In this document: positions 3,322-15,676 of the stretch, piece by piece
Layout: each line of letters opens with the position of its first letter
Position numbering within the stretch: position 1 is the first letter of the stretch
Assembly (NCBI GenBank): GCA_001563335.1
Contig: LRSL01000078.1
Coordinates: forward strand, 1 to 15,676
Length of the DNA stretch: 15,676 nt
Source: Candidatus Thorarchaeota archaeon SMTZ1-45
Lineage (GTDB): Archaea > Asgardarchaeota > Thorarchaeia > Thorarchaeales > Thorarchaeaceae
Direction: 5' to 3'
Program-made: the position numbers and the translations under genes
Notes under the pieces: model-generated
What the model was told of the DNA's origin: nothing
The model's database searches: none
What the model saw: only the letters and a program-made list of their open reading frames with translations

Positions 3322-4503
3322 ATGGCAGAAGTTCTTGCAAAACCATCGCGACGCATCAGGAACATGGTAATGAAAGAACTTCGGTTAATAATCAAGGACA
3401 AGGTCGCCCTCCTCTTGATTTTCCTACTTCCTGCTGCACTAATTGGGATGCTCTGGTATGTAACTGAAACAAGCAGCTTTGGAGGGATGATGGCTGGTGG
3501 CGGAGGAGCAATAGGTGGCGGCGATGATATAGGTAATGAAACAACTACAGATAGTGGGATCAAGTTAGGTATTGTGGACTTAGATACAACCAGAACCTAT
3601 GATGGAGAAGATCTTTCTGAGAACCTGACTGCGTTCTTTGATGAAATGGCGAATATTACTATGTATAATTCGTCTGCAGACGCATACAGAGCACTATATG
3701 ACCAACTGATTGATGCCTACATCGTGATTCCAGATGGATTTGAAGCCAATCTCACCATAAATGAACCAACATATATCGAAGTCCACTACGATGGAAATGA
3801 TTTACTAGCATCAGCATCCATCCAAGGAGTCATACAAGCGGGAACCATTCTATTTAGAGCATCAAAGCTCTGGATTCGCTCAGAAGTCTTTCCTGGTATA
3901 ATTATTGAGTTCACTCCTCAAGGTGGTTACCTCGAGAGCGTCTTTGGAGGGTTCATTGTAATATTCTCAAGTTACCTCGGGATTGCGATGACTTCAGCTC
4001 AATCAATTGTTGGTGATGTACCCCTTCGGAGAATGTTACTTACACCAACCAATAGGCTAGAAGTTATTGTAGCCAAGGTCATTGGGTATGTAATTATTGG
4101 CTTCTTCCAATCACTTTTGTTAGTTACATTATGGGTACTAGCATTTGATCTAAATCTCAACACAAGTTTTATCTCTCTTGTAATCATCATGAGTCTAAGC
4201 TCGCTCACAGGATCGGCCACAGGGATTTTGATTTCATCTGTTGCAGGTACAAGATTACAGGCTAATCAGATGTTCCTCTTTGTCTTATTTGGCACTCTTA
4301 TTCTTTCAGGCTTTTTCATTAACGTTGGAATCTTGGATTCAATACTCCCAATGAACCAAGGACTTAACCTTCTGATTGATACAGCATTCAAGGGACTAAC
4401 CTTACTACAAGTAATTGATAGAATTCTAACTCTGTTTGGTTTCTCTGCCATTGCAATATTACTTGCAACTTTCGTATTCTCAAGGAAACCCACATTGGAT
4501 TAG
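3322..4503 (+). CDS. ABC-2 type exporter permease (YhhJ/YbhR-like, with extracellular domain)
   Basis: N-terminal 'MVMKELRLIIKDK' ABC-2 signature, TM1, extracellular loop (LGIVDLD...AYIVIPDGF...IEVHYDG), five more hydrophobic segments, 'RRMLLTPTNRLEVIVAK' coupling motif. Confidence 0.93.
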   Translation: MAEVLAKPSRRIRNMVMKELRLIIKDKVALLLIFLLPAALIGMLWYVTETSSFGGMMAGGGGAIGGGDDIGNETTTDSGIKLGIVDLDTTRTYDGEDLSENLTAFFDEMANITMYNSSADAYRALYDQLIDAYIVIPDGFEANLTINEPTYIEVHYDGNDLLASASIQGVIQAGTILFRASKLWIRSEVFPGIIIEFTPQGGYLESVFGGFIVIFSSYLGIAMTSAQSIVGDVPLRRMLLTPTNRLEVIVAKVIGYVIIGFFQSLLLVTLWVLAFDLNLNTSFISLVIIMSLSSLTGSATGILISSVAGTRLQANQMFLFVLFGTLILSGFFINVGILDSILPMNQGLNLLIDTAFKGLTLLQVIDRILTLFGFSAIAILLATFVFSRKPTLD

Positions 4504-6195
4504 GTGATGATGAAGATGATATTAGATACAGACCGCTCGGATTTTCCTGAAGAAGAAAAACCAGCTTTTGTCGAAGAAGCATACTTCTCAGGGGCTAGAT
4601 TGAGCGAAGCTATTGATTGGTGTATTACAAGACAGACCCGTGAGTTGCATTGCGAGGTAGAGGGAAAGCTTACAATAACTGGCAGGGATGTGAAATTCAA
4701 AGGTCGAATCTTGAAAGTCAAAAAGGGTGTTCTTACACGTAAGATTGCTGTCTATGTAGAAGAAGACCTCCGTAGACAACGTGTAGGAGAACTTGACAAG
4801 GTACTCACTGTAGGTGGAGAGGGTTCAAGTCAGGATGATATTGCAGCCACGCAAATCACTGTCCAGAACTACTTGAAGAGGAATATGGCTGACGACCTAT
4901 ATTATGATGGTCGGGACCTCCAACAAGCTGTGAAGGACCTTGAAAAAATGAAAAGTCAGGAGGTCGAGTGCACGGTATGGGGTAGAAGAGGTTCTGATAA
5001 GACATTGATTATGATTAAGGGAACAATTGTTGGTGCATCAACCAGACCAGCCCCGATTCTTCCAGAGGGAACTCTTGAGGTACGAGTCGCTCCAGAAGAG
5101 GAGGTTGGAGACCCTAAGATTTACATGGTTGCACAACCCCAGCTTCTGATCGGACCTAGTTATAATCCAAACCTCACAATTCTCGCGAACAAAGTGTACA
5201 TCATGCCTTTCGCTTGGAAACAAGCTCCTGAATATAGAGATGTACTAGCAGCCAGAAATCTGACAGTGGCTATCAAGAGTGGAAAGAAACTCATAGAGAA
5301 TGTGTCATTCTCAATACGAGAGGGAGAAATGCTAGCCATTATTGGAGAGTCCGGTGCAGGAAAATCAACTACTGTGAAAGCGCTAATCGGGGACATTCCA
5401 AGCACAGGTGTGGCAAGAATAGCAGGGATTGATTCAAGGCAGACCCAGAAAGTCAGACATTTCTTTGGATATTGTCCACAGGATCTTTCATACATGTACG
5501 AAACTTTCACTCCCCTTGAGAACATCATAGCCTTTGGAAAACAATATGATATTCCAGAGTGGCAGCTCATTCAGAGAGGCAAGACCCTCCTAAGAGATTT
5601 CGGGATACTGGAGAAAGGGAACAACCAAACCAAAAAGCTGAGTGGAGGGGAACAGAGAAGAGTTTCAATTGGTATTGCGCTCGCACATAAACCAAAGGTT
5701 CTTCTCATGGACGAACCAACCTCAGGTCTTGATCCTGATAATAGAAATGAGCTATGGAGCTATCTATCTTATATCAACCAAGAGTACGGAACTTCGATAA
5801 TTGTCATTACGCATTATCCCGTTGAGGCTGAATTCTGTGATAAGGTGGCGGTCTTTATGCGTGGAAAGAGTCTTGTTGCTTTTGGAAGTCCAGCCTCACT
5901 AAAGGAGTCTATGCCCTCCAGGGGATTTGCAGTTGGGATTGTACTTGAAGAGGTGGACCCAAGAGCAAGAAGGACACTTGAGACTGTGAAGGGAGTTCGT
6001 TTTGTTCTTCAGCGAGGGGAGCTTCTAAAAGTATTCACAGACGAGCCCTTGGAAATAATTGCAGAGGAATGCGTGACAGCTTTAAAGGAACAAGACATTG
6101 TAGTCAAAATTGTAAAAACAAAGTCGGTAGCGGATATGGTTGACTATTATGTCGCTATAACTCGAGGGCTCATTCAAGGTACAATTGAGAAGTGA
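4504..6195 (+). CDS. ABC ATPase (DrrA/CcmA-like) with N-terminal tandem TrmB-effector-like domains
   Basis: Walker A GESGAGKS, Q-loop GYCPQ, signature LSGGE, Walker B VLLMDEP, D-loop SGLD, H-loop ITH. First ~240 aa are not NBD. True start is probably ATG 4510 or 4516, downstream of the SD-like AGGTGA at 4502-4507. Confidence 0.93.
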   Translation: MMMKMILDTDRSDFPEEEKPAFVEEAYFSGARLSEAIDWCITRQTRELHCEVEGKLTITGRDVKFKGRILKVKKGVLTRKIAVYVEEDLRRQRVGELDKVLTVGGEGSSQDDIAATQITVQNYLKRNMADDLYYDGRDLQQAVKDLEKMKSQEVECTVWGRRGSDKTLIMIKGTIVGASTRPAPILPEGTLEVRVAPEEEVGDPKIYMVAQPQLLIGPSYNPNLTILANKVYIMPFAWKQAPEYRDVLAARNLTVAIKSGKKLIENVSFSIREGEMLAIIGESGAGKSTTVKALIGDIPSTGVARIAGIDSRQTQKVRHFFGYCPQDLSYMYETFTPLENIIAFGKQYDIPEWQLIQRGKTLLRDFGILEKGNNQTKKLSGGEQRRVSIGIALAHKPKVLLMDEPTSGLDPDNRNELWSYLSYINQEYGTSIIVITHYPVEAEFCDKVAVFMRGKSLVAFGSPASLKESMPSRGFAVGIVLEEVDPRARRTLETVKGVRFVLQRGELLKVFTDEPLEIIAEECVTALKEQDIVVKIVKTKSVADMVDYYVAITRGLIQGTIEK

Positions 6196-9100
6196 TTCGA
6201 TGGCAGGTCTGAAACAAACATTGATGCATCTGATCCAGAAACTAGCGGCATACTTTCTGGTATACATCATAATTGTTAGTGGACTTTCCGTGTTCCCACC
6301 TGTTGTTGGAATAAGCCCCTATGTGACAGAACCCATGAACAAAATCGATGATTCACTACTCAATCAGACTTCCCTGGACCAGCGCCTTGATGTACTTGTA
6401 GGGTATGATGAAAAAGCAGGTGAAATCAAGGCCAAGAATGCAGTTTTGTTTGCAGACCATACCGCAGAATTGATTGATACATTCGAATCTATTGGTATGC
6501 TCCATGTAAAGATGTTAGGTTCATCTATTGTTGACTTGGCCAAAGAGGCATTCATCACAAGGATATGGTCGAACGAAGTCGCAACGATTGAACAAATACA
6601 GATTACTACAGATGCCACATCATCTTTAGAAGACTATGTACCTCTCATTGACCGAATTGGTGCAAGAGACCTCTGGGATGCTGGATATAATGGAACTGGT
6701 ACTGTTATTGCAGTTCTTGACACAGGTGTTGATCCCCTTCATCCGGACTTCAGCGTATCTGCATTTGCATCATTTGTAGAAGCAGACACCTTACCTCTAG
6801 ACCTTGTTGGACATGGAACATATGCAGCTTCTATAGCAGCAGGTTCCGGAAACATGTCTGAAGGAATATATGCGGGAATTGCACCAGGTGCAACACTGCT
6901 CTCTGCGAAGGTGACCCTCGGAGGACTTTTTGCAGCTCCAAGTTGGATTGTGTCGGGCATTGAATGGGCTAGCAGTCGAGGTGCAGATATCATTCTTCTT
7001 CCATTCAACACTCTGGGTGCTCCCGATGATGCAGTTTCTGAGGCAATCGAGATAGCTGCCAATAAGGGCATCTTTGTCATTGCTGCCTCAGGAGATGACG
7101 GACCGGATTATCTAACTGTTATGTCACCTGGTGGAAATGCAGCATCATTCTGTGTAGGCGCCTATGACACCGAAAAACAGGAGATACCTGACTTCTCTGG
7201 GAGAGGTCCCTCGCTCTCACTACTTACAAAACCGGATTTGGTGGCTCCAGGAGTGGGTGTTGTTGGAGCTAAAGCAGGTGTTGGTCTTTCTAGTCTTGGT
7301 TTTGGAGATATATCACTTAGTGATCTTGGAAACTTAGGTGGACTTGGTGGACTGCTTGGAGGTTCACTTGGTGAAACCATAGATGAGAATTATACAATTG
7401 CAGACACGACCACTGCTTCAGCAGCCATCACTGCAGGTGCAGCAGCAATCCTATTACAAGCGTTTGATAGAGTCACTCCAATAACCTTAGCTAATGTTCT
7501 TCGAAACACTGCAACTCCCATTGGCTACGGTGCTAATGATGGTGGAGCCGGACTTCTCAATTTGCAGGCTGCTTTCAATTATCTAAGTACTAAACAAACT
7601 CCTGGAGATCCACACACGCGAGCAACAAGTTTGCCCCTTCTTGCACTTGGACTTATCACAGCAAGTGGAACAGATGCATCAACTACTTTGCTGATGAGTA
7701 GCTTCGGAACAACTCTCGTAGCTCTTGATGAACGTAATCCTCAGGATTCAGGAATCCATCTGATGATGGGTATGTTCTCTATAAAGTGGAACAATGAAAA
7801 CCCAATGAATCTGATGATGTTTGATGTCAAAAGTGAGTTACATCAAGTGGTTTCAGCTTCAGCTATTACACCGTACAATCGTTATGTTGGTGTGTTGTCA
7901 TATAATGACTCAATCTATGTCACATTCAAAGTTGAATCGTATAATCTTACAACTTACTCGCCTCTACCTCTAACTGCTCTCAGAATTACACCCTATATCC
8001 TCAACCTTGGGAGCGAACCGATTGAGAATGTGAGTCTGTATGTGTCCTATTCATTGGACCTCTATCTTGATGGTGAGTCAGACCATGGTAAATATGACCT
8101 TGACAATCAACAGCTCTTTGCATATGGTCTCTCAGAGAGTTATGGTAACTTTTACGTAGGAATGAACTCAAGTATCCCGCTTTCTGCGTTTGAGGTCGGT
8201 AACTCATCCAACATTGCCAACCATGTGTCAGACAACAATTTGACAGGCTCTACTGTCTTTGATGGCGATGTTGGTTTAGCAATGCAGTGGGATTTTGGAG
8301 CTCTAGATGTTGATGATCTTGCCAATGTAACAATAGCCATGGGTTTTGGTGAAAATCGATCAGTTCTTGATGCATCAATTGATGCCATGTGGCAATATGA
8401 TATTCCCGCGGGTGCTTTAACTCAAGGAGACCTCATTGTTGTAGAGTCTGATGTTCCAAGAATAGCAAAAGCAGGTCAAACATATCAATCAAGAGCTGTA
8501 ATTATGAATATAGGAGAGGAAAACTCCACAGCTATCGGAGCTATGATGGTAGTTGAGGGGTCAGCAGATGAGGGAACTCTATTTGCAAGATATTTCTCCT
8601 ATGATGTGATAGAACCCTTCAAAGCTAAAGTGCTAATGACAGATTGGCGGCCAGAAACAGAGGGTGTGAGAACTGCGGCTTGGGCTGTTTCAACGGGATT
8701 AGATCAAATCGTTAATCTTGTTTCTAATCCTGCAGAACTACTACTCACCATAGGAGTCGGAATCTTGGATGATTTTATACTTCGAGATGTATTCATCATC
8801 ACTCCGATATCATCAACATCAGTATTTCCAAAAGAACTACCATTTGCTCCATTTGACATCCGATTCCCAGCAGATTTTGGTCTCTATAGCTTTGTCTTGT
8901 CCACTACTGAGTCACTTGGAAATCTCACCATTACAAACTACGGAAATGCCTCAGAATGGGGCAATATGTCACTGACCAGCGCAGACACAATTGAAGGATT
9001 CTATGACTTCTCATTATTCTTGCTTTCACCACCCATTGGAATGGACGGGTATCATAGGTGTGACTATGTTCTCAAAACAGAAGCAGGATGGAGTGACAAC

Positions 9101-10567
9101 ATAACACTGGAGCGAGTTTTAGAGTATCCTCGGGCGATGATGCTCTTAGATACTTCACATGGAGGTGGGTTTGGGTCGCTCATGGGAGATATAGGAGGTC
9201 TGGGTGACACAGGGAACCTTACTGGGGATACTGGAATCGGCTTTCCACTAGCCCAAGAAGACACATCAGATGATGACACAATGGGGATGGACTTCAGCCT
9301 GAATGATCTTGATAGTCTGGGATCCATCACTGGTCTCTTTGATTCATTTAGAATGACTACATTCTCTGGGCTATCTAATATGAAGAAGACAATGGCAGAT
9401 GTGGGTCTTGACCTGATAGAAACACCGGGAGTGGAGTTAGACGAAGATCTACTTGCGACTTTCTCGACTGTCTTCATAATTGCTCCAACTGAAGAGTTCA
9501 ATCAGACAGAGATAGATATTCTCCGAGAGTTCACACGCAATGGAGGAACATTGGTCATTCTTGGTGACAATGATGACAACGCAAATACAACTGCACTCAA
9601 TCCATTGCTTTTGGAGTATGGTTACTATCTTTCAGGGAGTCATGATAAAGAGAATACAACAGATATTGTGACAACGAAACCATTGGGTCTCGGTTTGGAT
9701 TGTGTTTGGCTGGGTGGCGGAGCATACATTATGAACAATCAATCTCAAGCTAACGTTAGACTTGATGGAAACAGCGTCGTGGTTTTAGATTCCACAGACC
9801 CGGAACTCGCTATCTTTAGCTCATCGAAAATCTTCATGAACAAGAATCTTGTGAAATGCAACAATAGTATTCTACTAGACAATCTGAATCAATTCCTACT
9901 TCGAAACACTCTGAGTACATCAACAAGTCTTTCAGAGGACACTTTGTATTATCAGGCGGGCAGAAGTGTCTATGTCAATTTACAGATATCAGATTACTAT
10001 GGAAATCCGGTCAATGACTTATTCGTCGCAATCGCGTACGAGCTTCCGAACGGAAGTTTGACATTCTTCATTGCCGGTTTCGTTGAAGACGGTCTCTACT
10101 CATCACAATTTGCACCTAGCTACTGGAGTTCAGAGGGGAGAATAAACGGTATTTTCCTCATTCTTGGTGATGAGAACTATGCCATGACATATGCTAGTGT
10201 AAGCTTCTATTTGTTCGAGATTGAACCCACAATACCTACCGAACCAACAATTGGACTCCTTACTATGGCGGAACTTGCACTTCTTACATCTTTAGGGATT
10301 TTCGGTGGACTCATTGGATATTTGGTCTGGAACCGAAGAAGAATGAAAAAACGTCTCAGGATTCCTGAGATTGAACCTGAGCTCGTTCGAGAGATAGATA
10401 ATACACTAATGGCATTATTGGCAGCCTTCACGCAACTAGAGGACCTCATACAGAGAGAAGACCTTGATAGAATACAGAAAGTTGAGGCACTCCGCGTTCT
10501 CATGCAAGATATTGAAGAAGGACGTAGGATGTTCGAACGCGTGAGCGATAAAGTAGGAGGTGTGTGA
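6185..10567 (+). CDS. Large membrane-anchored subtilase-family (S8) protein, probably catalytically atypical: signal, I9-like propeptide, S8, beta domains/CARDB-like Ig, GIFT (GldG/IFT52/DUF4350-like), Ig-like, TM, cytoplasmic helical tail
   Basis: VIAVLDTG (Asp, 6719), GHGT (His, 6812), FSGRGP and KPDLVAPG motifs; nucleophile motif reads ADTTTASAAITAGAAA instead of SGTSMAxPxVAGAAA. GIFT-like 'LLDTSH...LLATFSTVFIIAPTEEFNQTEIDILREFTRNGGTLVILGD'. TM at about 10256-10330 followed by RRRMKKR. Probable true start is ATG 6200. Confidence 0.88.
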   Translation: MRSDSMAGLKQTLMHLIQKLAAYFLVYIIIVSGLSVFPPVVGISPYVTEPMNKIDDSLLNQTSLDQRLDVLVGYDEKAGEIKAKNAVLFADHTAELIDTFESIGMLHVKMLGSSIVDLAKEAFITRIWSNEVATIEQIQITTDATSSLEDYVPLIDRIGARDLWDAGYNGTGTVIAVLDTGVDPLHPDFSVSAFASFVEADTLPLDLVGHGTYAASIAAGSGNMSEGIYAGIAPGATLLSAKVTLGGLFAAPSWIVSGIEWASSRGADIILLPFNTLGAPDDAVSEAIEIAANKGIFVIAASGDDGPDYLTVMSPGGNAASFCVGAYDTEKQEIPDFSGRGPSLSLLTKPDLVAPGVGVVGAKAGVGLSSLGFGDISLSDLGNLGGLGGLLGGSLGETIDENYTIADTTTASAAITAGAAAILLQAFDRVTPITLANVLRNTATPIGYGANDGGAGLLNLQAAFNYLSTKQTPGDPHTRATSLPLLALGLITASGTDASTTLLMSSFGTTLVALDERNPQDSGIHLMMGMFSIKWNNENPMNLMMFDVKSELHQVVSASAITPYNRYVGVLSYNDSIYVTFKVESYNLTTYSPLPLTALRITPYILNLGSEPIENVSLYVSYSLDLYLDGESDHGKYDLDNQQLFAYGLSESYGNFYVGMNSSIPLSAFEVGNSSNIANHVSDNNLTGSTVFDGDVGLAMQWDFGALDVDDLANVTIAMGFGENRSVLDASIDAMWQYDIPAGALTQGDLIVVESDVPRIAKAGQTYQSRAVIMNIGEENSTAIGAMMVVEGSADEGTLFARYFSYDVIEPFKAKVLMTDWRPETEGVRTAAWAVSTGLDQIVNLVSNPAELLLTIGVGILDDFILRDVFIITPISSTSVFPKELPFAPFDIRFPADFGLYSFVLSTTESLGNLTITNYGNASEWGNMSLTSADTIEGFYDFSLFLLSPPIGMDGYHRCDYVLKTEAGWSDNITLERVLEYPRAMMLLDTSHGGGFGSLMGDIGGLGDTGNLTGDTGIGFPLAQEDTSDDDTMGMDFSLNDLDSLGSITGLFDSFRMTTFSGLSNMKKTMADVGLDLIETPGVELDEDLLATFSTVFIIAPTEEFNQTEIDILREFTRNGGTLVILGDNDDNANTTALNPLLLEYGYYLSGSHDKENTTDIVTTKPLGLGLDCVWLGGGAYIMNNQSQANVRLDGNSVVVLDSTDPELAIFSSSKIFMNKNLVKCNNSILLDNLNQFLLRNTLSTSTSLSEDTLYYQAGRSVYVNLQISDYYGNPVNDLFVAIAYELPNGSLTFFIAGFVEDGLYSSQFAPSYWSSEGRINGIFLILGDENYAMTYASVSFYLFEIEPTIPTEPTIGLLTMAELALLTSLGIFGGLIGYLVWNRRRMKKRLRIPEIEPELVREIDNTLMALLAAFTQLEDLIQREDLDRIQKVEALRVLMQDIEEGRRMFERVSDKVGGV

Positions 10568-11567
10568 TGTGGGAAAATCTGATGTCAAAGAAACCCATCG
10601 TGAGATTGACATCATCGACCTCCAAGTGGCGTTTGGTGACTTCTACGCCTTGAAAGGAGCGTCTTTCTTCGCAAATAAGCGAGAATTCCTTGGTATAATT
10701 GGAGCCTCAGGAGCTGGTAAAACAACAGTTCTTAGAGTACTCACAGGACAAATTGACCCAACTAGTGGAAAAGCATTCGTTGGCGGATATGATGTCACAA
10801 AGAAGGCAAAGCTGATTAGTCTTCTCGTAGGCTATGTTCCTCAACTTGAACATCTGAGTCTGTACTATGATTTCAATGCACTTCAAAACGCTCAATTCTT
10901 CGGAAGGATGTTCGGTCTCAGACCAAAGGAGATTGAAGAGCGAGCGAGAAATATCCTCACAATTCTAGGCTTTGATGAGGAACTAATCACAAAAAGAATA
11001 GAAAGACTCTCAGGCGGAGAACGCAAGAGAGTGTCAATCTGTCTTGGGATGATCCATAATCCCCCTGTGCTTTTGCTCGATGAGCCCACCACCGGGCTAG
11101 ATGCCCATCTACGACATGAAACCCTGAACTACCTGAAGGAGCTAAATTACGAGCTGGGCACAACAATGGTCATCATTAGTCATGACCTTGAGATTGTCGA
11201 TTACTGTACACGAGTATGTCTGCTAGAAGAAGGAGATGTGAGTCAATTCGGGACTCCAGAGGAATTGATCTCAACACTACCTGGAAGAGGAGAGAGCATA
11301 CGTGTTGTTATGCATGCTTTGACTCCTGAAATCATCAAGCGGATAAATTCACTCCCAAGAGTACAATACACTGCACCAGCTGGCAGGAACGCAATGAAGC
11401 TATTCATAGATAATCCGGATCAGCAGCTGCTGCCAATCATCAAGAAACTAAATGAAATGAAACTACCATTCGAGGAGGTCAGTCTTGTTGAGGCAGACTT
11501 CTTTGATTATTTCCAGGTCAAACCCTGGAAACATATTCCTAGTGAGCTAGGAGGAACCACATCATGA
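10560..11567 (+). CDS. ABC ATPase (DrrA/CcmA-like), second NBD of the operon
   Basis: Walker A GASGAGKT, Q-loop GYVPQ, LSGGE, Walker B VLLLDEP, H-loop SHD. Probable true start is GTG 10569, after SD GGAGGTG (10556-10562). Confidence 0.95.
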   Translation: MCDVGKSDVKETHREIDIIDLQVAFGDFYALKGASFFANKREFLGIIGASGAGKTTVLRVLTGQIDPTSGKAFVGGYDVTKKAKLISLLVGYVPQLEHLSLYYDFNALQNAQFFGRMFGLRPKEIEERARNILTILGFDEELITKRIERLSGGERKRVSICLGMIHNPPVLLLDEPTTGLDAHLRHETLNYLKELNYELGTTMVIISHDLEIVDYCTRVCLLEEGDVSQFGTPEELISTLPGRGESIRVVMHALTPEIIKRINSLPRVQYTAPAGRNAMKLFIDNPDQQLLPIIKKLNEMKLPFEEVSLVEADFFDYFQVKPWKHIPSELGGTTS

Positions 11568-14500
11568 AGACATATCATGTGATTATAGCCCTATTGATTG
11601 TCTGCACGCTTGCAGGACTGCAGCTCCAGACAACAGACACGGGTATGACACCCGTGACAATCACGAGTCCACAGGTTCAAGAGGTTCCACACTCACTCGC
11701 GGAGATTGCACCATTCAACACGGCTATTGTATGGTCTACCACAACGGGAAACCAGGTTGTGGACCTTGTTGTTGATAACTTCGATGCAGATGCGCGAGAT
11801 GAGGTGGCGGTCATCACCCAGAATGGTACTCTGTACCTCTTCGATGACAATAGCACACTTTTGTGGAGACTGAAGCTTGGCTCGACACCACGTGCTCTCG
11901 CATCCATGGATGGTACTGCGGCTTCAGGCCAAGAGATACTCATAGGAACAGACTATGGTGTCCTTGTGGTCGGAGCTGATAAGACAGTTCAGATGAACAT
12001 GTCATTGCCAGAACCAGTCCATGCTGTTGGAGGTGGTCATCTTGATGGTGACGGTCTTGAAGAGGTCGTTGTGGGCTGTGACGATTTCTATGTCTATGCT
12101 TTTGAGATTGACACGACTCCGCTCTGGAGCTATCTGAGTAATGGCAGGGTTCGTCTGATCGCTGGTGCGGATATTGATGCAGACACTCGAACTGAGTTTG
12201 TTGTGGCTTCTGAGGGGAAGCGGTTCACCCTCTTGCAGGACACAGGCACTATGGTGTTCGAAAAGTCAAGCCCGACAGATATCAGAGTCATAGCAATGGG
12301 AGATATCACCACAGCAGGGAACTGGGATGTGCTCTATGGAAACAGCAATGGAACTCTCAATGTTTGGTACGATACTGGAGCCCTTGCATTCAAGCTCGAG
12401 GTTGAGAGTAGCATATCGGCCCTGAGAGTCGGAGACCTTGTGACTGGAGGAAGACATGAGTTCGCTCTAGGCACTGCATCAAACCAACTACGAGTATATA
12501 CATCAGCTGGCGTACTGTCTTGGAACAAGACCATGGGTGGACAACCCAATGACATTCGATTCCCCAACATCGGAGCCACTGCAAATGCACAGGTCCTCGT
12601 TGGTACTCCTAATACACTCACGACATACAACACCACTGGTTGGCGTGTGAACCAGTTCACTGCTAATGGATTCACGGGCGCTTTGAGTATCGGAGACCTT
12701 GATAACTTCGGTGGGGAGGAATATGCCTTTGGTACGAACGTAGGTGGCGTGTCAGTGTATGGCAGGGACCTTGACAAGGATGGCCTGGCTGATGCTCGTG
12801 AGATTATCATGGAGGGTACGTTCTACGATGACTCCGATAGCGACAACGATAATCTAAACGATGGGCAAGAAGTGCTTACATATGGCACAGACCCGCTCAA
12901 AGCCGACTCGGACAATGATAAGCTATCTGACTTTGCTGAGGTAATTACACACGGAACAAATCCCAATTCTGCAGACACAGATTCCGATAAACTCACTGAT
13001 TGGCAGGAGGTTTACCTCGGTACAAATCCGAATCAAGCGGACACAGATTCGGACTCGCTTACTGATTATGAAGAAAATAATATCACTCTGACACTCCCTA
13101 CTGACCCAGACAGTGATTCTGATGATATCAATGATGCACAGGATGATAATGATGGTGATGGTCTCACCAACATCCAAGAAGTTCGTATCACAAAGACAGA
13201 TCCTAACGATGTGGATACGGATGGAGACCTAATCTCAGATTATTATGATGACCAGGATGCAGACAACTTAGCAAACTGGAAAGAGATACAACTTGGAACA
13301 GGAGTCTATGATCCTGATAGCGATGACGACCTCTTGAATGACGGGTATGAAGTGAAGACGAGCAAGACCTCACCACTCAATGAAGACACAGATGGAGATT
13401 CATTGACTGATTATGAGGAAGTGGTGATTGTCCATTCAGACCCACTCAAAGCCGATGGAGACGAGGATGGTCTTTCGGACTACGATGAATATGTTGTCTA
13501 TGGTACTGGAGTCTTGGACAGTGATAGTGACGATGACAACTTGAATGATGGAGACGAGGTCAATACCTACTTCACGGATCCCCTGAATAATGACACTGAC
13601 TCTGATAATATTGAGGATGGACTAGAGGTCAATTTCTGGGGCTCAGACCCGAACTCAGCTGACACAGACCTTGACAATCTTGATGACTTTGCAGAGTGCT
13701 ATGTTTGGAACACAAACGTGACAAATAGTGACACAGATGGTGACACTCTAGGAGATGGGCTTGAAGTCCTCACTTATGGAACAAACGCCTCTTTAGTTGA
13801 CACAGACTTTGACCTGCTTCGAGACCCAGACGAGGTGAAGTATCTTGCTAATGGCTGGGACCCAACGAATCCTAATACCTTCGATGCTGGGACTTTGGAT
13901 GGAAACTGGGACTTCGATAGTGACAGACTCACAAACTATCAGGAGATTTACCTAACGCGCACAAACCCAACGCTTGTGGACTCTGGAGGGTTACCACTCA
14001 CTGATGATCTTGAAGATAGCGACCTTGATGGTTTGAACAATTATGATGAATTATACGTGGTTTTCACGCACCCTAGAAACCCGGACAGTGATTCTGACAA
14101 GGTGAAGGATGGAGATGAATGGAATGTTCTCGGAACCAATCCTAACGATGAAGACAGTAACGATAATGGTGTATCGGACTATGATGAGGACTTTGATGGT
14201 GATGGGCTTAGCAATGGAATAGAGTTGTATATCACAAAGACTCTGCATGATGATGCAGACACGGATAATGACTTCATCTCTGACTATGATGATGATGAGG
14301 ATGCGGACTTCCTACCCAACTGGTTTGAGGTGGAGATGACTGGGACAGACCCCTTATACAATGACACGAATGATAATGGAACGTTCGATTGGGAGGAGGA
14401 CTCTGACAATGATGAACTTACGAATCTCGAGGAGTTTCTACATGATTGTGATCCACTAGCTGCTGATACAGATTTAGACGAACTGACTGATGGAGAAGAA

Positions 14501-15676
14501 GTCCTTTACACTCACACGGACCCAACAGACAGTGATGATGATGATGATGGGATTCTCGATGGGCAGGATGACCAAGATAATGATGGTCTCACTAACATTG
14601 AGGAACTTAGGACCTACGATACCAATGTGACTCTGTGGGATACAGATGGAGATCGACTTAGAGATGGACTTGAGATTGATATTGGTCTCAATGCTACAAA
14701 CCCTGATAGCGATGGCGACACATTATATGATGGATGGAATGATGGCAATCTTAATGGTGTCTATGAACCACTCCTTGGAGAGCGCGGAGAGGACGTCAAC
14801 GCGAATGGTGTGGTCAATGTAGGTGAAACATCACCATTTGAGGCTGACAGCGATTTTGATGACTTGGACGATGCCGAAGAGTACCTCTACGGAACAAGCC
14901 CCTTGGATGAGGACAGCGATAATGATGGACTTCTTGATGGAGAGGAAGTCAATGACTATGGAACGAACCCCCTCAATGAGGACTCTGACTCTGATCTTCT
15001 TTCTGACTACATAGAGGTCGAGCTTACCAATACAGACCCGAACAACATGTGGTACAATGGAACTCACACCCATTACATGATTGATAGTGATGGGGACTTG
15101 CTAACGAACGGAGATGAGATTGATATCTACGATACAAATCCTGGAGACTTCGATAGCGACAATGACAACATTGGAGATGGATATGAAGTACTCATCTACC
15201 TTTCAGACCCGCTCTCGAGTGATAGCGATGGTGATGGACTTCAAGATGATGATGAGCTGTTCTATGGCACAAACATCAATGTTCAGGACACAGATGGAGA
15301 TCAGCTCGATGACTTTGTGGAAATCGAGTATCTGGGAACAGACCCATTGTTACCATCCACCAACATGAATGGTACCTTAGATGGTGATCTTGACAATGAC
15401 AGTGACGGACTATCTAATGCAGTGGAGATTTATGGATATCACTCGAACGCAACGGCTCCAGATAGTGATTTAGATGGACTAAACGATGGCTTTGAGGTCT
15501 ATGTATCAGGAACCTCCCCCACGGATCAGGACAGCGATGATGATCAGCTCAGTGACTATGTCGAGTACTGGATTTATCATACTGACCCAAGCGGCACAGA
15601 CAGCGATTCTGATGGACTCGATGACTACTTCGAAGTATATTTCTCATTGACCTCTCCAACGTCTTGGGACACTGAT
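11564..15676 (+). CDS. Giant secreted Ca-binding surface protein/adhesin: signal peptide, 8-bladed FG-GAP-like beta-propeller, long thrombospondin-type-3-like (DxDxDGLxD) repeat region (partial; continues past the right edge)
   Basis: ATG 11564 overlaps the upstream TGA (ATGA), with SD GGAGG at 11550-11554. Manual translation MKTYHVIIALLIVCTLAGLQLQ... shows no stop for 1371 codons to the window end. Not in the ORF track. Confidence 0.93.
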   Translation, partial: MKTYHVIIALLIVCTLAGLQLQTTDTGMTPVTITSPQVQEVPHSLAEIAPFNTAIVWSTTTGNQVVDLVVDNFDADARDEVAVITQNGTLYLFDDNSTLLWRLKLGSTPRALASMDGTAASGQEILIGTDYGVLVVGADKTVQMNMSLPEPVHAVGGGHLDGDGLEEVVVGCDDFYVYAFEIDTTPLWSYLSNGRVRLIAGADIDADTRTEFVVASEGKRFTLLQDTGTMVFEKSSPTDIRVIAMGDITTAGNWDVLYGNSNGTLNVWYDTGALAFKLEVESSISALRVGDLVTGGRHEFALGTASNQLRVYTSAGVLSWNKTMGGQPNDIRFPNIGATANAQVLVGTPNTLTTYNTTGWRVNQFTANGFTGALSIGDLDNFGGEEYAFGTNVGGVSVYGRDLDKDGLADAREIIMEGTFYDDSDSDNDNLNDGQEVLTYGTDPLKADSDNDKLSDFAEVITHGTNPNSADTDSDKLTDWQEVYLGTNPNQADTDSDSLTDYEENNITLTLPTDPDSDSDDINDAQDDNDGDGLTNIQEVRITKTDPNDVDTDGDLISDYYDDQDADNLANWKEIQLGTGVYDPDSDDDLLNDGYEVKTSKTSPLNEDTDGDSLTDYEEVVIVHSDPLKADGDEDGLSDYDEYVVYGTGVLDSDSDDDNLNDGDEVNTYFTDPLNNDTDSDNIEDGLEVNFWGSDPNSADTDLDNLDDFAECYVWNTNVTNSDTDGDTLGDGLEVLTYGTNASLVDTDFDLLRDPDEVKYLANGWDPTNPNTFDAGTLDGNWDFDSDRLTNYQEIYLTRTNPTLVDSGGLPLTDDLEDSDLDGLNNYDELYVVFTHPRNPDSDSDKVKDGDEWNVLGTNPNDEDSNDNGVSDYDEDFDGDGLSNGIELYITKTLHDDADTDNDFISDYDDDEDADFLPNWFEVEMTGTDPLYNDTNDNGTFDWEEDSDNDELTNLEEFLHDCDPLAADTDLDELTDGEEVLYTHTDPTDSDDDDDGILDGQDDQDNDGLTNIEELRTYDTNVTLWDTDGDRLRDGLEIDIGLNATNPDSDGDTLYDGWNDGNLNGVYEPLLGERGEDVNANGVVNVGETSPFEADSDFDDLDDAEEYLYGTSPLDEDSDNDGLLDGEEVNDYGTNPLNEDSDSDLLSDYIEVELTNTDPNNMWYNGTHTHYMIDSDGDLLTNGDEIDIYDTNPGDFDSDNDNIGDGYEVLIYLSDPLSSDSDGDGLQDDDELFYGTNINVQDTDGDQLDDFVEIEYLGTDPLLPSTNMNGTLDGDLDNDSDGLSNAVEIYGYHSNATAPDSDLDGLNDGFEVYVSGTSPTDQDSDDDQLSDYVEYWIYHTDPSGTDSDSDGLDDYFEVYFSLTSPTSWDTD
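11717..12766 (+). repeat. Eight ~40-aa FG-GAP/VCBS-like propeller blades
   Basis: Blade cores: DNFDADARDEVAV, MDGTAASGQEILI, GHLDGDGLEEVVV, ADIDADTRTEFVV, GDITTAGNWDVLY, GDLVTGGRHEFAL, PNIGATANAQVLV, GDLDNFGGEEYAF; N-terminal NTAIVWS could supply the closing strand. Confidence 0.8.
12767..15676 (+). repeat. Protein-level tandem array of bacterial TSP3-like Ca-binding repeats: 36 complete long units (mostly 22-23 aa) plus 10 short (11-12 aa) units
   Basis: Consensus D-[ST]-D-x-D-x-L-x-[DN]-x-x-E-x4/5-T-[DN]-P-x3, e.g. DSDNDNLNDGQEVLTYGTDPLKA; counted by hand. The DNA is diverged between units. Confidence 0.92.

Follow-up and report, generated by a model that had tools for sequence, protein, structure and literature searches.

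A 15,676-nt contig (C78; hereafter the window, meaning the whole stretch of DNA analysed) belongs to a 3.54-Mb metagenome-assembled genome (MAG) of Thorarchaeota type, within the Asgard archaea. It encodes an ATP-binding cassette (ABC) ATPase, P0001, whose first ~240 residues form two tandem strand-helix-barrel modules. The fold of the first module (copy 1) and its Pfam match support its assignment as the C-terminal barrel of the effector-binding domain (EBD) of the transcription factor TrmB. The module is followed by a diverged duplicate (copy 2) and by a nucleotide-binding domain (NBD) of exporter type. In the reading that we favor, at a probability of roughly 0.45, copy 1 would hold a cytoplasmic ligand site that is sugar-like by descent, copy 2 would act here as a scaffold, and occupancy of the site would modulate an asymmetric ABC-2 exporter. 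A preliminary description of the gene had placed an internal duplication at positions 4579-5208, or amino acids (aa) 26-235. Translation of 4504-6195 gives both copies, and the peptides and coordinates are exact.

The Pfam family Regulator_TrmB (PF11495) matches aa 43-121 with 30.4 bits against a gathering cut-off of 22.2 (E 3e-7). This match is confined to profile positions 162-231 of 233 and thus covers the C-terminal subdomain only. The same family is matched by 32 of 33 orthologous N-termini from species-level genomes, with a best E of 2.4e-11. A structural comparison with TrmB had been set beforehand as a check. The model of the N-terminal 241 residues has predicted local confidence (pLDDT) of 70-85 across copy 1 and 50-62 across copy 2. 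With Foldseek, the copy 1 model matches two PDB chains at E<=0.001 and no others: TrmB 3qph_A at E 4.3e-6, with an rmsd of 2.0 Å across 98 columns, and 2f5t_X, the sugar-binding domain of TrmB, at E 6.2e-5. VIA-align, an all-against-representatives structure search of 48,161 chains, places copy 1 on 3QPH with Z 15.4 and an rmsd of 1.9 Å over 93 residues, and on 2F5T with Z 15.1 and 2.0 Å over 92 residues. The aligned part covers TrmB chain residues 247/248-342 at 22% identity. Only these two chains reach Z>=8; the next match has Z 7.3. The fold neighbors that follow TrmB, at Z 5-7.3, are Sm-like folds, namely Pelota-N, WYL regulators (PafBC, BrxR and CapW), LSm and RimP. According to a review of TrmB (PMC4158304), its residues 247-342 are the second EBD subdomain, a flattened barrel of seven strands together with strand E-beta-9 and helix E-alpha-4.

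Copy 1 begins ~20 residues past the N-terminus of P0001, and the protein has no match to PF11495 profile positions 1-160, which correspond to the first EBD subdomain of TrmB. The Pfam scan of P0001 detects no PF01978 winged helix-turn-helix (wHTH) or other HTH domain at E<=0.1, and no TOBE or ACT-type match. P0001 is not a TrmB regulator, since it lacks the defining DNA-binding domain as well as the first EBD subdomain. It does carry a TrmB-type barrel.

The internal duplication is real, as judged from both sequence and model. A BLASTP comparison of copy 1 with copy 2 inside P0001 gives E 0.003 with 25% identity over 60 columns. For a family-wide comparison, the two halves were cut from a 125-sequence alignment that includes distant members (124 rows each); hhalign then aligns 97 columns with a probability of 98.1% and E 7.2e-14. 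If the comparison is limited to close Thorarchaeota orthologs, the signal drops sharply (probability 27%, E 6.6e-4, 50 columns). In the full-length model the two halves have an identical order of elements, namely one strand, one helix and five strands. These elements are residues 24-29, 30-42, 47-56, 62-74, 79-88, 100-104 and 113-124 in copy 1, and 132-135, 136-147, 155-162, 168-181, 188-195, 205-210 and 225-234 in copy 2. The preliminary description had assigned the TrmB barrel to both halves. The assignment stands for copy 1, while copy 2 on its own stays below the PF11495 threshold (E 0.22 for the window protein). At E<=10 the profile finds copy 2 in 11 of 33 orthologs, at best with E 0.041, and an Atlas search with copy 2 alone as the query returned no usable match. 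A TrmB-type fold of copy 2 is supported indirectly, through its homology to copy 1 and the order of elements in the model. Copy 2 is still highly conserved, with 35 invariant columns in the 33 orthologs.

The candidate ligand-binding element is a loop of copy 1. In TrmB, the second EBD subdomain provides six of seven sugar contacts (N305, G320, M321, V324, I325 and E326; PMC4158304). Of the sugar contacts, G320 and E326 are the two described as conserved throughout the family (PMC4158304, PMC10817205). In P0001, the stretch 4810-4845 encodes V103-A114 (VGGEGSSQDDIA) and keeps the pattern VGG-x5-DD, as had been claimed. In a 52-sequence family alignment with members down to 20% identity, T102 and G104 are the sole invariant columns and D112 is conserved in at least 90%. 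Position 105 is mostly Gly, and residue 111 is E, D or Q. In the family, the acidic residue lies 5-8 residues from the conserved Gly, compared with 6 in TrmB (G320-E326). If residues are counted backward from the final pair aligned in the structural superposition, G105 would fall on G320 and D111 on E326. The loop would then sit where TrmB contacts the non-reducing glucosyl group.

The equivalent loop of copy 2 is degenerate in the window lineage, where it reads LLIGP...NLTILANK. Its loss from copy 2 had been noted before and is true of this lineage; relatives outside Thorarchaeota keep the motif in copy 2. In families f11, f18, f6, f27, f29 and f32 it retains G-G/R ... D/E-V-x-A-x-K. Since other families keep the copy 2 loop, the ancestral protein probably had two sites, of which Thorarchaeota retain one.

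The remainder of P0001 is an ABC ATPase in which every catalytic motif is intact. The TIGR01188 (drrA) model aligns to aa 264-551 with 175 bits, below its cut-off of 312.45, and the GldA equivalog TIGR03522 scores 100.1 bits, far under its cut-off of 402.6. By these profile scores P0001 is an ABC-2-class ATPase related to the DrrA and GldA subfamilies and a member of neither. The full-length model, built from the 52-sequence alignment, has a mean pLDDT of 87 and a predicted TM-score (pTM) of 0.79. Among the 50 Foldseek matches listed for this model, 4yer_A, ABCA7, ABCA4 and ABCA3 align over 314-344 columns. The NBD and the C-terminal domain are closest, among the matches listed, to the NBDs of TM_1403, the ABCA family and NosF. 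These closest solved structures and an ABC-2 permease gene directly upstream support an exporter-type ATPase, in agreement with the preliminary description. The true start of the protein is likely ATG 4516, and the sequence GGTGAT lies ahead of it at 4503-4508. The ortholog at locus L002 has an in-frame stop at codon 4 and so must begin at the Met equivalent to 4516. The features of P0001 and its neighbors are listed in Table 1.

Table 1. Features of the barrel-ABC ATPase gene and of the neighboring genes in the window (ORF, open reading frame; TM, transmembrane)
Feature	Position	Strand	Basis or remark
Barrel-ABC ATPase P0001	4504..6195	+	563 aa as longest ORF
Copy 1, strand-helix-beta-barrel module like the C-terminal subdomain of the TrmB effector domain	4567..4884, aa 22-127	+	PF11495, Foldseek, VIA-align
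Copy 1 loop T102-V-G104-G105-EGSSQ-D111-D112-IAA, candidate ligand loop	4807..4848	+	52-sequence alignment, structural match
Copy 2, diverged strand-helix-barrel duplicate	4891..5211, aa 130-236	+	hhalign, element order in model
Copy 2 degenerate loop (LLIGPSYNPNLTILANK)	5143..5193	+	second Gly replaced by P, acidic residue by T
ABC nucleotide-binding domain core	5296..5724, aa 265-407	+	Pfam ABC_tran PF00005, E 1.7e-27
Walker A, GESGAGKST	5344-5370, aa 281-289	+	canonical
Q-loop, CPQD	5473-5484, aa 324-327	+	canonical
Signature, LSGGEQ	5638-5655, aa 379-384	+	canonical
Walker B and catalytic Glu, VLLMDE	5698-5715, aa 399-404	+	canonical
H-loop, ITHY	5806-5817, aa 435-438	+	canonical
C-terminal alpha/beta domain as in DrrA/TM_1403/ABCA-type NBDs	5911..6192, aa 470-563	+	TIGR01188 and Foldseek
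ABC-2 family permease P0002, 393 aa, large loop after TM helix 1	3322..4503	+	Pfam
Giant membrane-anchored protein P0003, 1460 aa, S8 subtilase and GldG/IFT52-GIFT-like	6185..10567	+	Peptidase_S8, E 2.7e-37
Second, plain ABC ATPase P0004, 335 aa, without barrels	10560..11567	+	ABC_tran, E 3.8e-26
Giant secreted protein P0005, >1371 aa, runs off the window	11564..15676	+	TSP3_bac, E 1.6e-14; propeller families
Divergent upstream gene P0006, 784 aa	751..3105	-	Pfam: no family

The five plus-strand genes, from the permease to the TSP3 giant, are packed with overlapping or abutting ends. The stop codon of P0002 (TAG, 4501-4503) abuts the ATPase gene, and the gene of P0003 overlaps it by 11 nt. The permease P0002 is recognized by both ABC2_membrane_3 (105 bits against a cut-off of 31.6) and ABC2_membrane (48.8 against 26.9). 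P0005 is a beta-propeller followed by many TSP3-type Ca-binding repeats. This arrangement is conserved. Species-representative genomes contain 34 close loci, 25 in Thorarchaeota, two in Promethearchaeota, one in Hermodarchaeota and six in unclassified archaea. The permease lies upstream in 31 of the 34, and the other three begin at or inside the ATPase gene. The subtilase giant follows in 32, and the other two end inside the ATPase gene. The plain ATPase is found in 23, the remaining 11 ending before its position; the TSP3 giant is found in 21, each miss being a contig end. The divergent P0006 is present in 27, and the other seven begin downstream of its position. At eight distant fusion loci the gene order is shuffled and the parts are kept: the permease in 8/8, the plain ATPase in 7/8 (the contig of the eighth ends) and the subtilase giant in 6/8. 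One of them, L058 in family f31 (G175:C366:1-11484), reads plain ATPase, permease, permease, barrel-ATPase and subtilase giant. The conserved block contains no glycosyltransferase or glycan-synthesis gene. Since the loci encode two distinct NBDs alongside one or two permeases, the NBDs may form a heterodimer, P0001:P0004, with the barrels on one subunit as a single sensor arm.

A word-indexed search of 5.8 billion proteins returned 150 relatives of the N-terminal region. The best 120 of these are 62-100% identical and mostly 556-566 aa long, and those that have a name carry no annotation beyond ABC ATP-binding protein, from Thorarchaeota or other Asgard MAGs. A profile search of 1.84 billion cluster representatives gave only 18 matches at E<=0.001, and an ABC_tran domain is present in 9 of the 13 that were scanned. 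Two matches from this search, the Ig-repeat giants P0140 (4937 aa) and P0144 (800 aa), each cover query residues 167-211 in seven stretches; they were treated as spurious and excluded from the family. Across 32 species-level genomes the N-terminal module is 61-93% identical. A profile survey finds the module in 121 of 400 Asgard genomes, nearly always as one copy per genome and in ORFs of ~545-655 aa. It is present in 80 of 85 genomes of the window's own family (f1), in addition to the window's genome. It also occurs in f21 (1/1), f11 (17/19), f6 (5/5), f18 (6/6), f27 (3/3), f29 (1/2), f31 (2/14), f32 (2/4) and f20 (3/3). Families in which the survey found none include f8 (0/135), f4 (0/31) and f24 (0/22), among others. 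Stand-alone single-barrel ORFs of 134-168 aa are seen in f20 (3/3 genomes) and as second matches in two f1 genomes. Two single barrels related to copy 1 carry Arg-rich or His/Asp-rich tails (L060:8781-9269, minus strand, 162 aa; L062:8949-9353, plus strand, 134 aa).

The halves of the TrmB effector domain seem to live separate lives in the Asgard phylum, judging from PF11495 matches in a sample of 61 Asgard genomes. Matches confined to the barrel (profile positions 133-231) are all in ORFs of 553-607 aa, the size of the fusion, and the other matches all begin in the first subdomain and are found in ORFs of many sizes. Most matches in this sample stop by about profile position 165, within the first EBD subdomain. 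The best PF11495 match in the window's own genome (L035; G000:C109:4801-5223, minus strand) covers the first EBD subdomain only (positions 2-143). This locus contains two in-frame TGA codons, which might reflect a disrupted gene, a pair of separate genes or recoding.

The preliminary description had suggested a sugar-gated exporter, which is plausible, and these results lead to a proposal for function. P0001 would be the sensor-bearing subunit of an ABC-2 (type V) exporter in a conserved Asgard cell-surface operon. The barrel module is cytoplasmic because it is fused to the NBD. The ligand of copy 1 would be a small cytoplasmic molecule, in all likelihood a sugar or a derivative of one. The Thorarchaeota copy 2 would be a scaffold or would supply the second pocket wall that the absent N-terminal subdomain forms in TrmB. 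On a permease dimer, the barrel-ATPase would pair with the plain ATPase P0004 (three genes downstream). Ligand on the single sensor arm would change NBD closure or ATP turnover. Transporter activity, and hence the handling of the adjacent giant surface proteins, would then be tied to the metabolic state of the cell.

Several observations weigh against this proposal. In TrmB the two EBD subdomains enclose the sugar in a cleft, where the reducing sugar touches Ser229, a residue on helix E-alpha-3 of the first subdomain (PMC4158304). This first subdomain is absent from P0001, so an isolated barrel may bind no sugar at all; it may need another wall, such as copy 2 or the NBD, or bind something else. 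Mainly because half of the TrmB cleft is missing in this way, sugar binding is still treated here as a hypothesis. Only two of the six barrel contact residues are arguably conserved, and their mapping is a count from range ends, not a residue-level alignment. Family f31 has a longer, Lys-rich insert instead of the copy 1 loop (locus L058). Hidden Markov model searches of PDB sequences with three family profiles, built from the entire N-terminus (A1), from copy 1 of close orthologs (A3) and from copy 1 of a set that includes distant members (A4), did not retrieve TrmB at E<=10, so the sequence similarity to characterized TrmB is low. The weak matches that did appear in these searches, an SSB OB-fold (E 0.52), bL31, VipD and EcoRI, are non-significant and were discarded. 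The barrel is also an Sm-like fold, and its neighbors WYL, Pelota-N and LSm (Z 5-7) bind RNA, ssDNA or proteins. Finally, the heterodimer is drawn from gene co-occurrence only.

Other explanations of the barrels were weighed against the same data. The barrels could be a docking module with no small ligand, holding the ATPase to the tail of P0003 or to the second ATPase, or serving as an autoinhibitory plug. Sm-like barrels are common protein and nucleic-acid interaction modules, as the matches to LSm, Pelota-N, WYL and RimP at Z 5-7 illustrate, and P0003, a possible partner, ends in a TM helix and a ~70-aa charged helical cytoplasmic tail. The pTM of 0.79 suggests that the barrels pack against the NBD, and copy 2 has lost the loop and yet is highly conserved. 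However, the best-conserved residues of the N-terminal region are exactly those of the loop that in TrmB contacts the sugar, and this loop varies in length while its Gly and acidic residue stay fixed, a pattern more in keeping with a pocket than with an interface. We consider docking rather doubtful. The barrels could instead recognize the substrate in the manner of Wzt, binding the sugar part of a transported lipid-linked glycan or of glycosylated cargo and loading the channel. WzmWzt is the one characterized case of a sugar-binding domain on an ABC-2 type NBD (PMC9445017), and its NBD and permease are of the same broad class as P0001 and P0002. The operon encodes giant extracellular proteins, and the gene upstream may be glycosidase-like of (alpha/alpha)6 type, which is a lead only. 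This explanation is unlikely, given that the conserved block is without glycan-synthesis or glycosyltransferase genes, the barrel differs from the Wzt domain in both fold and position, and the permease has the large-loop ABC2_membrane_3 architecture.

Binding of nucleic acid or of a nucleotide-derived signal, as in WYL and Sm domains, would agree with the fold neighbors that come after TrmB (the WYL regulators PafBC, BrxR and CapW, and LSm). TrmB is far ahead of them (Z 15 against <=7.3), Pfam assigns the TrmB family only, and why an exporter ATPase should read nucleic acid is not evident; we regard this ligand class as very improbable. Chance similarity, with neither a true duplication nor kinship to TrmB, would account for the weak BLASTP match within the protein (E 0.003), the probability of 27% from Thorarchaeota sequences and the failure of the PDB sequence searches to find TrmB. 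It is refuted by the family-wide hhalign result (E 7.2e-14), by PF11495 matches above the cut-off in 32 of 33 orthologs, by Z 15 with an rmsd of 1.9 Å, and by distant relatives that carry the motif in both copies. A bolder extension of the favored sensor proposal is unlikely to hold in all of its parts taken together. In it, tandem TrmB-type barrels would be a free-standing ligand sensor of ancient origin that Asgard archaea wired onto one arm of an asymmetric, heterodimeric ABC-2 engine; single-barrel ORFs of 134-168 aa do exist in Asgard genomes. A cytoplasmic sugar or nucleotide-sugar would then directly switch the machine that handles the giant subtilase/GldG(IFT52-GIFT)-like and TSP3-repeat surface proteins. 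TrmB regulators would have acquired the same barrel independently.

Comparison with known systems places the sensor proposal in context. P0001 shares with TrmB of Pyrococcus furiosus and Thermococcus litoralis (3QPH and 2F5T; PF11495 positions ~150-233) the strand-helix-flattened-barrel fold, and the conserved Gly...acidic loop of copy 1 lies at the presumed place of G320...E326. Unlike TrmB, P0001 lacks the wHTH, the coiled coil and the first EBD subdomain with its sugar-recognition helix, and its barrel occurs as a tandem duplicate joined to an ABC NBD. For four of the six contact residues in the TrmB barrel, no conservation can be claimed. In WzmWzt, a carbohydrate-binding domain (CBD) on the exporter NBD recognizes the glycan and alters ATP hydrolysis (PMC9445017). 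Because this sugar-binding domain already sits on an exporter NBD, the concept of such a domain modulating the NBD is not new; only the fold and position here are. Both systems are ABC-2/type V exporters in which an ATPase subunit bears an extra cytoplasmic domain, which in Wzt binds sugar. The CBD of Wzt is a C-terminal beta-sandwich. It is carried by a homodimer, whereas the domain of P0001 is N-terminal, Sm-like, tandem and probably present on one of two NBDs, and the P0001 operon is without glycan-synthesis genes. No Wzt chain is among the 50 Foldseek matches listed for the full-length model, which excludes nothing. The preliminary description had also stated that no such fusion was known. 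Full-text literature searches found no paper on a barrel-ABC ATPase fusion, so this holds for the barrel, with WzmWzt as a precedent for a sugar-binding domain on an exporter NBD.

Importer ATPases provide another parallel. Their regulatory domains (TOBE-type in MalK and ModC, C2 in MetN) mediate trans-inhibition by ligand. As proposed for P0001, a small ligand-binding domain on an ABC NBD tunes the ATPase in response to a cytoplasmic ligand or partner; these domains differ in being C-terminal, on importers and of other folds. The GldA/GldF/GldG system of Bacteroidota gliding motility, together with the auxiliary (GldG/GIFT) proteins annotated 'ABC-type uncharacterized transport system', resembles the operon in having an ABC-2 permease and ATPase beside a GldG/IFT52-GIFT-like protein, and the GldA model aligns to P0001. 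In contrast to that system, the GldG-like domain is here inside a 1460-aa subtilase fusion, and there are two ATPases, one of them bearing barrels.

If the barrels bind a metabolite, P0001 would be the first ABC ATPase of exporter type to carry a sensor of TrmB type, and it would offer a simple, testable example of an ABC-2 engine that a ligand controls directly, by way of a single arm of an NBD heterodimer. The TrmB sugar barrel is an independent evolutionary module whose use extends beyond transcription factors. The analysis also marks a conserved, uncharacterized Asgard operon comprising a permease, two ATPases, a subtilase/GldG-like giant and a TSP3-repeat giant. The sensor could be the first experimental handle on the function of this operon, because its ligand would reveal the input. 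Were the ancient-sensor extension also true, the prokaryotes most closely related to eukaryotes would be adjusting the architecture of their cell surface to metabolism at the post-translational level.

The neighboring proteins show further features of their own. In P0003, IFT52_GIFT scores 32.2 bits against a cut-off of 27.2, while ABC_transp_aux (25.4 against 34.7) and DUF4350 are below theirs. The GldG-like domain at aa 1073-1221 is thus above the cut-off for the eukaryotic IFT52 GIFT family and is fused to a subtilase; the presence of such an IFT52-like domain in a surface operon of Asgard archaea may be of interest for studies of eukaryogenesis. The catalytic serine of S8 peptidases is usually found in the motif GTSxAxPxVAG. 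In P0003 the stretch expected to hold it, at aa ~400-425, reads DTT[T/A/S]ASAAITAG. The canonical Ser position is T, A or S among orthologs, and those at L030 and L033 have no Ser in this stretch. P0003 may thus carry a subtilase domain that has no activity or relies on a shifted nucleophile. The Atlas neighbors of P0006 by features and by predicted structure include clusters of Bac_rhamnosid6H, MGH1-like_GH and GDE_C, which is the origin of its possible (alpha/alpha)6 glycosidase-like assignment. The ortholog of P0005 in genome G046 has 2258 aa and is followed by a TPR protein; a second permease was looked for downstream of this TSP3 giant in G046 and was not found. The N-terminal propeller of P0005 scores 35.3 bits with BBS2_Mid (cut-off 27) and 26.5 with the BBS7 beta-propeller (cut-off 27), and this similarity to BBS proteins is probably generic and FG-GAP-like.

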